A program made the position numbers and the translations under genes. This document shows, piece by piece, positions 15,659 to 57,730 of a stretch of DNA of 64,000 bases. The notes beneath the pieces are model-generated. The model made no database searches, had not been told where the DNA came from, and saw nothing but the letters and a program-made list of their open reading frames with translations. Source of the stretch: Eledone cirrhosa (lineage: Eukaryota); contig OZ024743.1 in NCBI GenBank assembly GCA_964016885.1, forward strand, positions 274,040,001-274,104,000, given 5' to 3'. Position 1 is the stretch's first letter, and each line of letters begins with the position of its first letter.

Positions 15659-15723
15659 ATTTTATTATACATATTTCAGAGGTACTGAGTTAAGTTCAAC
15701 AGTACGTCCTCATCAGATAAGAT
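15659..15723 (-). ncRNA. Type I hammerhead ribozyme, extended helix II class
   Basis: atcttat CTGATGA ggac gtactg..cagtac ctct GAAA tatgta TA ataaaat. Confidence 0.7.
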
Positions 15724-16534
15724 AAATGATACATGACATACCCTGACATAGTAGATGGTTAAGATTTAGTCATGGTAGCGATTATCTTATGACAAAACTC
15801 AATATGTATACCATAATATTGAGAACATGAGATAACATAATACAAACAATAGAGAGGATGCGTGTATTAGAGTTTAAGATATACATGGCATCGATATATC
15901 ACTTATAAAAATTCTTTTAATTTTTAAAAACTACTGGAGAAAGAGGAGGGAAAGGAAAACATAGAGGAAGAAACAGCTGATGTGATAATATATTTAGTAG
16001 GTGGCTTGTGAAAAAACAGATGAAAGATGATTAAAGAGAGAGAGAGACAAAGGGGAGTAATTTATGTTCAAGTTTATATACACAGATCTCCATATAAGCA
16101 ACACATGTCCAAAATAATATAGTTGGCGGTTAATTTTCAAAATATGTAATTTAAGTTATTTCAGGGTAATGAATATTATTTTAGGTTTTAAAAGTTAATA
16201 GGTATTTGTATTAATATTATAATATAATTATGTTTAATTTCTAAAATTCAAATTTTATGAAAATAAATTTAAAGGATTTACGAAACACGAGAAAGAAAAT
16301 ATATATAATGCTTTTATAACTTCACGAAGGTAATCTTTACCAAGATTATTTATAATATTGACAACAGTTTCTATAATATAATTTATAAAATAATTATAGT
16401 TATAATTATTAAAGAATTTATTGTTAAATAGTCCCTAGAGTATCAACCGGCCTAATAAATTAACATAAACAAGTCCGAATTTTCAACTCTATACATGTAT
16501 TGATACAAAAATACAAAGATTAGTTTATTGTGGA

Positions 16535-16715
16535 TTGGCAGTATCGGTAGAGGGTCGGACGCCATGCTTTCCAGCATAGTTACGTCCCTTTACGATCTGA
16601 GTTCAAATCCCGCCGAGGTTGACTTTGCCTTTCATCCTTACGGGGTCGATAAAATAAAGTACCAGTAATGCACTGGATAATTGCTGGCCTTGAGCCTAAA
16701 GTAGAAACAATTATT
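16535..16715 (+). mobile_element. tRNA-derived SINE (best copy; Meta/RUDI-like central domain)
   Basis: B-box-like gagttcaaatcc, core gactttgcctttcatcctt..ggggtcgataaaataaagtacc, tail ggccttg.gccta..tagaaa. Other copies near 8790-9000(-), 10700-10850, 21035-21180, 22195-22320, 31215-31270 and 47940-48060. Confidence 0.7.
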
Positions 16716-18586
16716 TGTTTATAATTGAGGTGATACCTTTCAAATATATATAATATAATACAATAATGCAATATAGTAAATAAGTTACTGAAAATATTGT
16801 TCAAATATATACATAGTTAAAAATGTTGTTAAAAATATTGCTGAAGAGTTAATGTTTTATATCAATTATTTTCATTTAGTTGACATATACTATAAAGATA
16901 TGTCAAAACTATATGAGTCCTAATGATAGGGGCTAGATACAAAATAAATATACAAATAAAAGGAAATGAATTGTTTGCGAAGCTTAAAGTTGCCGGATAT
17001 TAAAAATATATTATAAATGGAATAGAGTTTTAATATAGTATGGAAAAGATATATCTAAAATATTTTAGCGAATGCGATATAAAGAGCAGCTAAATATTTG
17101 AAAGAGCCGAAGGTAATCGAAATTTAATTAAAATAAAATAAAATAAAATAAGTTAAATTAAATTATATTATATTATATTAAGTAAATGATTATATAAGTT
17201 CGACCTTCCAGGGAATATCAAACACTTATAACAATATAAAGTCATTTGAGTGTCTAAATTATTTATAAATGTAACTACGATAATGTTATTACACTAGATA
17301 AAGATATTTGTACAACTATATAGAGATATTATTATAGGTATTAATGAAACGGTATACATTTAATAAAAAAAATAAAAAATAATAATTATAACCATTATTA
17401 GTAATGCTATAAATGTAGTTTTACCTCCAGTTCAGTGGAGAGATAGGCTATTATGGTTTGTTATATTTATACCTAGATATACATAAAAGCAAATGCTGAC
17501 GACTGAAAACAGATATATCTGCTTTCAAGAAACCACTGGTAAATGAAATAATTATCTTATGTTGTTTATTACATAACTATATATATATATATATATATAT
17601 ATATATATATATATATATATATATATATATATATATATATATATATATATATATGTATGTATATATACATATATATATATATATGTGTGTGTGTGTATGT
17701 ATGTATATGAATATATAAATACATACACATTGAGAGTCGGAACGATAGAATTAATTATATAATATACATATATACATATGTGTTTTTCATTATTATTCTT
17801 CCTATTTGCTTCATTCGTATACGACGTACCAATTACCTGTTGTGTCTTAGTGCACTCCCAGTGATTAAATACCTCACTCAGGTGAACTACTATCGTACTA
17901 CCTATCCTAAAATCATACGCATCCAACTATAATATATATTTGTAAATGTAGATATAGGTAGAGAGAGGAGCTTGAGTACGTTGATATATATATATATATA
18001 TATATATATATATGTGTGTGTGTGTGTGTGTGTGTGTGTGTATGAACGTGTGTGTTATGACGTATGCTTGTATGTAATATATATGCATATCGATAGATAG
18101 ATATGAATATTTATAATGGTTTAAGCTCCAATAAATTTCTGTTTAAAACTGAACTGACAGTTGTGTATTGAGTTTGATAACAAAGTAGATTGTTTTAATA
18201 GATTTCCAAGATTGAGTGAACAAGTGAAATGCAAAACAGGAGGAACGAGACATAATATGAATAAGACAGAAAGTGGAAATGAGAGTGGAACAGTGAAGGA
18301 AGCAAGAATATCATTGATGTACATAAACATGATAATATTGAAAATTTGGACAGAATCTTTTAGAATTTACGCATAAAAAAAGAAATACAACACAGCTCCA
18401 CTGTTGTATGTGTGGATTCATTAATTCATGTGATTTTAATATATTTTCACAGTCTAACAGCACATTATATAAAAAGGTAGAAAACAATTTATATATATAT
18501 ATATATATATATATATATATATATATATATATATAGAGAGAGAGAGAGAGAGAGAGAGAGAGAGAGAGAGAGAGGGGGGAGAGAGA

Positions 18587-55100: not shown

Positions 55101-57221
55101 TCTTTTTAGATGAATGGACTGGTCAAACGTGAAATTAAGTGGCTTGCTCAAGGAGAAATTGAACCACCCGGTTTTACAGTATTTGGGATCCCAACACCTT
55201 AATCACTAATCAATAAAATTATGCATTATACTCAGTTGAATCTTTCACACACACAATATTGTGCAACGTATGAGAAATTATAGGTTGGTTTAATAGATAG
55301 CTATTTTTGAAAGAGGCGTCCAGCAAGAACAGTTATTAGATCATGTTTTTTTTTTAGAAAAGGCTTTTAAATGGTTCCTATAATGAACAGGGATATTTAA
55401 TATAGGAGGAGATAAACAGATATAAATGTTACAAGGAGAAATATAAATAACTATGCAGGGAATAACATTATCGTGAAAAAGTCCAGGTAAAGCGAAAGGG
55501 GTTGAAAATTGAAGATTGGTTTTGAACAAAATGTTCAGTTGCATTTGACAACATTCAATGTATCCCCAACTATATTTTGCCTTGTCAGATAAAGCTCAAT
55601 AACCTGATATAAATTGTAAAGAAATTATGAATATTTGGTTCTATTTTTATTGTTTAATATCTAGATTTTTAACGTAATTGGCCTACTTAAGCAATTGCAA
55701 CAGAAATCAAATTAGATCACATTGTATTGAATATCATATTAAAAGCTATATGACAAATATTTATATATCAAAACCTTTTCTGGATATTGTGGGGCTTCTT
55801 CGCATTAATATTGAATCGGAATTATAAAACTTGCATTGTGAAATTAAATGATGGATATTTAAATCTCATAATATGCGAGTTAGAATTTATTATATCTCTG
55901 CGAGAAAACTCCTTATTTTTTTTCTTTTGGCTTTTAAAATTTGGAATTCAATGTAAATTAGATTTTCTTTTACATCGCCTCAATCCAATGTAAATTACAA
56001 CCATTTAAGTGTTGCAGTAATACAGAGCTACCGTATGTCCCTTGCATATTAAGCCTGGTTTCTTATAAACACATTTTAGTTTTAGTTTTTTAGTTTTTTA
56101 GTTTTTTGTGGGAGGAGTGATAATGAAGAATGTGTTGAATATCATTGAATTTATTTAGAATTCAGCGATAATGAAAATATATCGTCGGATCTTGCAATTA
56201 GATAAAATAAGGTACGTGAGGGAACATGTAAAATTAAATTGGAAATAATTGCCACTTGAAATTAGACTCGATATAAAAATCTTCAGCTGTAAATCCTGTA
56301 TTCTATTTTACTTAAAGAAAAAAATTATAAAACTTGTTTTATAATTTCCTCTACTAAATTCCATTACAAAGGTTACACCCCCCCCCCCCCCACACACACA
56401 CATATATATATGGTATAAACAAACTTTAATATAATTAACATGTACGTGCGGCAATTGGTTTTGGGGCCCAGTTATGGCCACCATTGAATATTATAGGAAC
56501 CACTTTTTAAAGCTTTCTTGCAACGGATTGAGCACTATTTTCCTTGATATTTCATCTATAGATTTCTACAAACGCACCAACAGTTTGGCATATTTAGGCA
56601 TTACCAGTAGTTACGTATTTAAAACCATCTGATTTGGTGTCTGGTAACGCACAAGTCCAATTGCTGTTATAAATATTTTCAATTTCAGAATTGACCAGTT
56701 GATATGAACAATCAATTGCTTTTACAAAGATTTGAACAAATTGTGAATTTTTAATGTATTTTACCTTGCCGATAGATAAGCCCATAAAATAATGGATGAA
56801 TGGCCAGCTTCGGTATACAGTAGGTGTACCAGTAGCTCTCAATGGCGCGGGTGACCATTTTTTCTATCTCTATGCTCAACTTGTTCGACTAGTTTTCATA
56901 GTAAAAAAAACAGATGTTGAGCAACATAATTTGAGTTAACATACATTCAAAACTAATAAATTTCTAAATGTTTCACACACACACATACATATATATATAC
57001 ACATTCATATATATATATATATATGTGTGTGTGTGTATGATATATGTGTATATATATATATATATATATATATATATATATATATATATATATATATATA
57101 TATATATATATATATATATATATATATTCATATATATATACATACAAACACATGTATATACGTATACAATACACACATATAGACACCGCCCGTCTCCTTA
57201 ATCTATTTTATTTCTCATTCT

Positions 57222-57300
57222 TTCTTCTGATGAAGGACTCGGGTCCGAAACGTTAAAACCCTCTTCCTGCCATATCAAGCGTTAACCTAATATATACCTT
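57222..57300 (+). ncRNA. Hammerhead-like motif in a short dispersed repeat (homologue at 29720-29790, - strand)
   Basis: CTGATGA a ggac-tcgg-gtcc GAAA cgtTA; helix I weak; downstream tcttcctgc.at.tcaagcg.taa.ctaata is shared with the 29720 copy. Confidence 0.55.
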
Positions 57301-57669
57301 CAATATACTGTACCGATTCTGTTGTTATTTCTGTTTACCTTTTACATACACACAAACACACACACACATATATATATATATATATATATATATATATATA
57401 TATATATTTATATATTTATATATAAATAAAGTAAGAATATTTTCGAAACAGCGACCGATTTTGAAATTGTAAATGTAAGCTATCGCCCTATTTTGACCAA
57501 AGAAATTAAAGAAAATTATTTAGCCTGATAGTGGGGTTACGAACCCTCGGAGAAATGGAAAAAGATGAGTATTGACGTACATGGGAGTCGAACCCACATC
57601 TGGTTATCCATATATATATATATATCAATGATATTAATAACATGGAAACTATCTTTATAAAACCATATT

Positions 57670-57730
57670 TATTTTATTATATATATTTCAAGGGTACCAA
57701 AACTTTGGTACGCACTCATCAGATAAAATA
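57670..57730 (-). ncRNA. Type I hammerhead ribozyme at the 3' end of the Naiad-like element
   Basis: tattttat CTGATGA gtgc gtaccaa-agtt-ttggtac cctt GAAA tatata TA ataaaata; 8-bp helix I. Confidence 0.75.

Follow-up and report, generated by a model that had tools for sequence, protein, structure and literature searches.

Published hammerheads and the motifs of the window

Penelope-like elements are known, as an earlier note on this DNA correctly stated, to carry hammerhead ribozymes that cleave as dimers through a palindromic helix III (PMC4209133, PMC6765202), and small Penelope-linked variants with a reduced stem III and dimer cleavage have been reviewed (PMC6765202). Hammerheads with a weak helix III, one of them with a U·U first pair, cleave as dimers (PMC7229834, PMC4209133), and the U10.1·U11.1 combination has been reported (PMC3088659, PMC7229834) and is known in active ribozymes. 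Canonical hammerheads are carried by the Hydra elements and not by the Naiads (PMC8557442), and permuted hammerhead forms are the subject of a separate study (PMC10085705). Here we analyse the hammerheads of a 64,000-nt window of Eledone cirrhosa (contig OZ024743.1 of assembly GCA_964016885.1, positions 274,040,001 to 274,104,000 of the forward strand), taken from a 3.0-Gb genome rich in (TA)n; the coordinates below are those of the window. With moderate confidence, we propose that they are type I hammerheads located at the 3' ends of Hydra-clade Penelope-like elements and in non-coding derivatives of these, that they cut only as pairs, and that a mismatch at the fourth pair of helix II would act as a hinge or docking spot.

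The earlier note had placed four motifs on the - strand, each with intact CUGANGA, GAAA and UA cores, a C·C at pair 4 of helix II and a self-complementary 8-nt helix III, and all of these features were recovered by inspection of the sequence and by a scan for the core, the palindrome and helix I. Motif 1 (15659 to 15723), a type I hammerhead, has the helix II strands GGAC/CTCT with C10.4/C11.4 at 15706/15681, the helix III A-TATGTA-U and a predicted cut after A 15666. In motif 2 (32408 to 32465) helix II is TATC/CATT with the two C at 32451/32427, helix III is A-TGATCA-U and the cut is predicted after A 32412. Motif 3 (38031 to 38166) has a helix II domain of 101 nt that begins with CAGC/CCTA (C at 38148/38054), the helix III A-CGATCG-U and a predicted cut after A 38039, and motif 4 (57670 to 57730) has GTGC/CCTT where its family majority is GAGC/CCTT (C at 57712/57693), the helix III A-TATATA-U and a predicted cut after A 57678. 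The scan added motif 5 (24750 to 24846, - strand, core 24838 to 24758), which was absent from the earlier note; it has TACC/CATT with C·C at pair 4, the helix III A-TAATTA-U and a predicted cut after 24758, and no further copy was seen among the fetched loci. The window copies depart from their family majority by a U·U at pair 2 (motif 4), an A·C at pair 5 (motif 2) and a G·U at pair 5 (motif 3). Five strict motifs in the window are to be compared with none in each of 100 windows simulated with an order-3 Markov model. The CUGANGA, GAAA and UH segments follow each other in the order of a type I hammerhead, and A15.1-U16.1 is present in 14 out of 14 representatives. A register with an extra base and G10.1-C11.1 was rejected, as motifs 1 to 4 do not fit it, and the Rfam scan of the window gave no hammerhead family among the matches listed (150 of 232).

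The motifs share with those of Cervera and de la Peña (2014) the type I topology, a position within the 3' repeats of Penelope-like elements and the AU-rich flanks, and they have the palindromic helix III that goes with this position in the published consensus; in contrast, that consensus has an extra base after A9, G10.1-C11.1 and a continuous helix II, whereas ours is symmetric and has the pair-4 mismatch (PMC4209133). A Drosophila willistoni motif (PMC4209133, Fig. S3) combines a UA cut site and a U·U first position with the 8-nt palindrome A-UAGCUA-U, so that this association of helix III and first pair is already in print. The Hydra-clade hammerheads of Craig et al. 2021 (PMC8557442, File S2) resemble ours in host clade, 3' position, (TA)n targets and frequent U·U or G·U at the first position, but their helix II is fully paired after this position and their helix III has 3-4 pairs with a short loop. 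The HHR_Amex2 motifs of amphibian non-LTR (non-long-terminal-repeat) retrozymes (PMC7229834) and the repeats with a palindromic stem III (Perreault 2011, PMC3088659) are also comparable, since their palindromic helix III is weak, their helix II begins with U·U, dimers cleave better and a single genome holds more than 100,000 copies. These motifs keep however the contacts between loops 1 and 2 and sit in 330-350-bp repeats (PMC7229834, PMC3088659), whereas ours have a long helix II with a break at pair 4 and are carried by a coding element or by a 2.7-kb derivative.

No C·C at pair 4 was found in the supplement alignment of PMC4209133 that was searched, where single rows show C·A (sea urchin) and U·U (Clonorchis), and the hammerhead table of File S2 of PMC8557442 holds no pair-4 mismatch. 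In metagenome contigs, 79 loci related to P0003 were examined, most of them closely related to a single protein; 26 had a hammerhead-like match, mostly 4-pair stems with a G-C first pair and a tetraloop, two being U·U-first, and none of the 26 had a pair-4 mismatch. Among the viral contig loci listed, 0 out of 80 passed the helix filter. Small Penelope-associated hammerhead variants with a reduced stem III and dimer cleavage were reportedly treated by Lünse, Weinberg and Breaker in 2017 and may already include our sequences. Neither this conserved pair-4 mismatch nor cephalopod hammerheads are described in the literature searched, to which the Lünse 2017 alignments do not belong; with these alignments set aside, the conserved pair-4 mismatch is the only feature for which no description was found.

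Conservation of the pair-4 mismatch

Over the whole genome, the loose pattern CTGANGA-N18-48-GAAA-N6-TA gave 143,397 matches versus 13,830 for the reversed pattern, such counts being pattern matches weighted by family expansion, which mirror a few large families, and not independent events. With helix III fixed as T....A, 119,896 matches were obtained in total. The C·C at pair 4, for which the earlier note had asked for a genome-wide measurement, is clearly enriched among them, with 83,347 matches (69.5%) against 29 in the control. The 5' C faces A, G or T in 30,055 matches (control 155) and is missing from 6,494 (control 637), so that it is present in 113,402 of them (94.6%). By eye and among the matches listed, one C·U family group makes up 85 out of 100 of the class where C faces another base, and the class lacking the 5' C consists mostly of decayed copies or noise. 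An unbiased listing of 100 loose-pattern matches contained 61 C·C, 20 C with another base, 1 without C and 18 with another helix III, the latter being canonical hammerheads and noise. Helix II domains of 49-109 nt gave a further 22,271 matches (control 1,705), the motif-3 family included, and for short C·Y motifs with a helix III starting with a non-U base there was no excess (2,244 matches versus 2,163 in the control).

To go beyond raw counts, distinct motifs having at least four out of five helix I pairs, two out of three palindrome pairs and five of the first nine helix II pairs were retained from the fetched loci; these 262 motifs fell into 37 clusters, or 39 after the largest was split. 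Pair 4 is C·C (17 clusters), C·U (4), U·C (3), A·C (2) or U·U (1), and it is paired in the other 12; among the paired and A·C singletons are decayed copies taken on purpose from the listing without C. It is thus mismatched in 27 out of 39 clusters, and 25 of these mismatches are pyrimidine·pyrimidine. Over the 39 cluster representatives, pairs 1 to 8 of helix II are Watson-Crick in 12, 34, 36, 10, 31, 28, 29 and 26 cases respectively, compared with means of 10.5, 13.7, 12.5, 7.3, 14.6, 14.4, 11.9 and 9.7 after shuffling. Pairs 2, 3 and 5-8 therefore covary, whereas pairs 1 and 4 are close to the shuffled level, and although the motif filter raises pairing overall it cannot produce dips at these two positions. 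In an alignment of 14 hand-picked short representatives, the covariation score was 0.745 (0 out of 500 shuffles, a value that is lenient owing to the relatedness of the sequences), both sides had changed in 15 out of 17 pairs and pair 4 was unpaired in all 14. Helices I, II and III are all supported by covariation, helix III being counted as a palindrome that is predicted to pair between copies.

The 26 clusters of the main class have a purine at 10.2 in 25, a C at 10.4 in 22, a pyrimidine at 11.4 in 25 and a purine at 10.5 in 25. Sampled copies have C·C in 27 out of 31 cases for the motif 1 family, 27 out of 28 for that of motif 2 and 29 out of 30 for that of motif 3. The pair-4 mismatch is real and its covariation support is good. 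The earlier note had considered a C·C to be conserved, and our results strengthen the position of the mismatch but not its strict identity: what is kept is a mismatch between two pyrimidines, most often C·C, and also C·U and U·C. The first pair calls for a similar correction. Its description as non-Watson-Crick and never G-C is right for the four motifs, but among 100 C·C matches listed and read by eye it is A-U in 43, U·U in 22, G·U in 15, G-C in 9, A·C in 7 and other in 4, and it is hence Watson-Crick in 52. The purine-pyrimidine pair usual at 10.1-11.1 in type I hammerheads is not kept here, a purine-pyrimidine pair being kept at position 2 instead.

Other families were met beside this class. 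At loci L505, L506, L482-L485, L494, L523 and L524, a branched helix II domain of 55-65 nt sharing GAGTCAGG...TCGAGCTG has U·C at pair 4 and a helix III A-CAATTG-U, A-CGATTG-U or A-CATATG-U, with no upstream open reading frame (ORF) seen at the fetched loci. Three near-identical small hammerheads of another family lie in the window at 41801-41831 (- strand), 42265-42295 (+ strand) and 51803-51833 (+ strand); they have a U·U first position, a 3-pair helix II, the 6-nt palindrome A-CTAG-U and a UA site.

Hydra-clade elements as hosts

The hosts were sought through ORFs located on the same strand and within 2.6 kb upstream of the 262 sampled motifs, the ORF classes being assigned without a Naiad protein as probe. 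A Hydra-type ORF was found for 51 motifs, another Penelope-like ORF for 1 and a Neptune-type ORF for 0. By family, the Hydra ORF was found upstream of 15 out of 86 copies in the cluster of motif 4, AGGC and AAGC, 10 out of 31 for motif 1, 16 out of 30 for motif 3, 6 out of 18 for the C·U family, 1 out of 10 for GGTC, 2 out of 4 for A·C and 1 out of 1 for one paired form, and no upstream ORF was found in 28 sampled copies of motif 2; many loci were chosen through their upstream sequence, and these fractions are not genome rates.

The most complete ORF of the window belongs to the element of motif 4 (57610 to 61117, - strand), a 5'-truncated Hydra-clade element with (TA)n at both ends. Its broken ORF (about 59404-61100) encodes a reverse transcriptase (RT) followed by a C-terminal GIY-YIG-type endonuclease, and its 3' untranslated region (UTR) of 1.7 kb contains repeat insertions at about 59016-59330. 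The ORF holds the sequence motifs RNIIW..PPFS and CNCRNELNCPL, and in the published alignment RNIIW..PPFS and CNCRxxxxCPL agree with the Hydra rows alone (PMC8557442). Compared with section 11 and Fig. S7 of the same work, the CxCX5C linker and the CxxC and CxH that flank the conserved E and N appear as CNCRNELNCPL with ICHLC...CRH and as CNCRIKNKC with ICNLC...CLH. The order of RT and C-terminal GIY-YIG-type endonuclease is common to motifs 1, 3 and 4 and to the AGGC, AAAC and GGTC families, and all the motif-linked ORFs end in the endonuclease, none having the N-terminal GIY-YIG of a Naiad; as Pfam gave no GIY-YIG match for the Hydra proteins, the endonuclease call rests on the motif match. 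A DKT, which the Hydra clade has where others have DKG, was seen in two Hydra frames of the genome (L088 and L172), neither with a linked motif. On these sequence features, we assign motifs 1, 3 and 4 to Hydra-clade Penelope-like elements, and the link to Naiads put forward in the earlier note appears largely refuted for them. Motif 1 lies in a 5'-truncated 3' UTR of such an element (15611 to 17500, - strand), which ends in (TA)n and has an unrelated repeat inserted at about 16506-16724, and motif 3 in another 3' UTR truncated in this way (37975 to 39200, - strand).

Motif 2 is carried by the 3' part (32340 to 33513, - strand) of an ORF-less tandem unit of about 2.68 kb, likely non-autonomous. 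Elsewhere in the genome, loci L184 and L170 (G000:C2:285432880-285435700) contain a short copy, a full ORF-less unit of about 2.68 kb and the start of a third one. The unit has internal repeats and motif 2 at each junction, and it is a candidate for a large retrozyme-like element. Non-autonomous derivatives of this kind have been proposed for retrozymes (10.64898/2026.07.22.740005), and by analogy the motif-2 unit likely fits such a derivative. A different Penelope-like element begins next to it at 33514 on the + strand; that motif 2 could be an antisense ribozyme at the 5' end of this element was rejected, since the motif-2 region is missing from all 39 other top copies, which start at 33514-33515.

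A quick tree of 34 rows was built (2 of the 33 chosen loci gave no usable segment), in which the rows labelled 'coral' are metagenome contigs with an assumed and not determined host. The Hydra rows of the genome group together in a single clade, three deep branches of which have C·C, and six C·C and C·U lineages have 38-58% protein identity. Protein searches gave relatives at 32-48% identity, few of them named, the best named one being from Octopus bimaculoides (47%). Contigs like motif 4 are many in two runs of unrecorded kind, possibly from the source sample, and no cut site is visible in them.

A (TA)n run occurs less than 400 nt after the motif in 80 out of 86, 30 out of 31, 28 out of 30 and 24 out of 28 copies of four families. 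Such runs are common in the genome, yet the motif-to-run distances cluster sharply: from the cut site to the first run they group at 45-65 and at 125-205 nt. An anole Penelope-like element has two internal RT start sites and a 'tail' (PMC11167929), which resemble these two groups. In many families AATAAA or a near match, possibly a polyadenylation signal, lies 3-12 nt past the cut site in the 3' strand of helix I (e.g., 57668-57673 and 32403-32408); the flank is AU-rich, and the published motifs are alike.

The window contains further Penelope-like sequences. At 2234-2280 (+ strand), a hammerhead of the minimal type, with an extra G followed by G-C and a helix II of five pairs, directly follows an ORF with RT and C-terminal GIY-YIG of a different Penelope-like clade with DKSG, and helix III of its genomic copies is a near-palindrome of 6 nt. 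The C-terminal part of a Neptune-type ORF (YYKPTD, C-terminal GIY-YIG region) lies at 44643-45716 (- strand). Counting this ORF and the elements at 824-2494, 27030-28303 and 33514-36631, at least three Penelope-like clades are represented. As to the Naiads, the 3' ends of Naiad_Ovul and of the preceding entry (PMC8557442, File S5), read by eye, show in succession a UA site and helix I, GAAA and a matching strand of helix III, and CUGAUGA, an order which, in the octopus consensus Naiad_Ovul marked 'HHR_half_core', suggests a permuted hammerhead.

Predicted dimer cleavage and the proposed role of the mismatch

Eight family-typical copies were folded. The intramolecular probability of A15.1-U16.1 did not exceed 0.045, and the active fold of the monomer lay 2.7-10.9 kcal/mol above its best fold, versus 0-4.5 kcal/mol per site for a swapped dimer, in nearest-neighbour energies that leave out the tertiary contacts of the core. 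The best-folding families were GGTC, AAAC and that of motif 4. In these models, helix III would likely form only between two copies. Two copies pairing through the 8-nt palindrome would then be cut after the UA, and a helix III formed between two motifs of one tandem transcript would release a unit-length RNA. Since the genomic copies extend 45-65 or 125-205 nt beyond the cut site, the RNA template would span an intact site, and reverse transcription would begin on RNA that was either left uncut or re-joined into a circle.

In canonical hammerheads, loop 2 begins after four pairs and touches helix I. Pair 4 of our motifs sits where this contact begins, and the pyrimidine mismatch would therefore likely be a narrow hinge or docking spot, placed where the long helix II passes helix I and substituting for the contact of loop 2. 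The dominance of C·C may need no base-specific reading, because no single transition would make a pair of it and four out of the six kinds of single change would keep a mismatch. Carried further, and only as a tentative proposal that we think somewhat doubtful, an entire lineage of Hydra-clade elements would have swapped the loop-loop contact for docking at a pyrimidine mismatch within a long helix II, and its ribozymes would be a natural obligate-dimer subtype, so far undescribed, with more than 100,000 copies missed by standard descriptors.

Several results weigh against a hinge or docking spot in hammerheads that cut only as pairs. No conserved G that could be the Watson-Crick partner of the C was seen in helix I or in the core, and helix I ranges from 4 to 8 pairs, so that a fixed docking geometry is not demonstrated. 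A paired position 4 goes with a palindromic helix III in 12 out of 39 clusters, including the Hydra-linked L478, and the mismatch is thus not required by the palindrome; the sampling of clusters was moreover partly steered by patterns fixing or excluding the C. The five window copies fold less well than the family-typical ones, with the full hammerhead as predicted best fold in none of them, and same-strand tandem pairs are rare among the fetched loci. The anole element did not need ribozyme cleavage to insert in vitro, and no reads were found to end at its cut site (PMC11167929).

Other explanations of the mismatch could be issued. The unpaired C could be read by the RT-endonuclease of the element or by a host protein and mark the RNA for template choice, with no role in ribozyme folding. 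The prevalence of the 5' C in the matches, together with the purine at 10.5, has the look of a small motif, and the copies end at fixed distances from the hammerhead; neither C is however invariant, as the U·C, A·C and U·U clusters indicate, and an anole element truncated to +20 of the ORF, starting at stem II, was still inserted (PMC11167929). We hold this protein mark to be unlikely. We find it a little harder to believe that the mismatch acts as a brake, in which a weak stem of three pairs ending in the mismatch would slow the cleavage and spare uncut template for reverse transcription. The near-shuffled level of pair 1, the low probabilities of the proximal helix II pairs (0.03-0.46 in 3 out of 8 families), the extension of copies beyond the cut site and the low in vitro activity published for Penelope-element hammerheads (PMC4209133) are all in agreement with a brake, but any mismatch at any place would do for this purpose, whereas the position is fixed and the mismatch almost always pyrimidine·pyrimidine.

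It is very improbable that C·C was inherited from a single ancestor as a neutral relic and spread by the expansion of families. The single clade of the Hydra rows, the weight of a few large families in the raw counts and the metagenome-contig relatives without mismatch would suit it, but the flanking pairs were repeatedly replaced with compensation while pair 4 stayed unpaired in lineages of about 40% protein identity. Least credible of all, to the point of being nearly discarded, is that the motifs belong to Naiads and supply their missing ribozymes: Naiads do favour (TA)n, some with unresolved hammerhead cores (PMC8557442), and no ORF is linked to motifs 2 and 5 in a classification made without a Naiad probe, but the linked ORFs carry Hydra motifs and place the RT before the endonuclease, the 3' end published for the octopus Naiad is not arranged like our motifs (PMC8557442), and the search of consensus sequences called for in the earlier note gave, for six GAAA-palindrome-TA strings, one chance match inside an ORF of the published Naiad, Chlamys and Hydra consensus sequences, where line breaks could hide matches.

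A pair-4 mismatch serving as a hinge or docking spot in pair-dependent hammerheads is thus the reading that we retain. The gain is mainly for specialists of hammerheads and retrotransposons, the catalytic core being ordinary, and descriptors demanding G10.1-C11.1 and a continuous helix II miss very large ribozyme families. Pair 4 is held unpaired across the divergent lineages of the Hydra clade in this genome, and the C·C, C·U, U·C, A·C and paired forms that coexist there make a natural set of variants with which selection on cleavage, attenuation or protein binding could be told apart.

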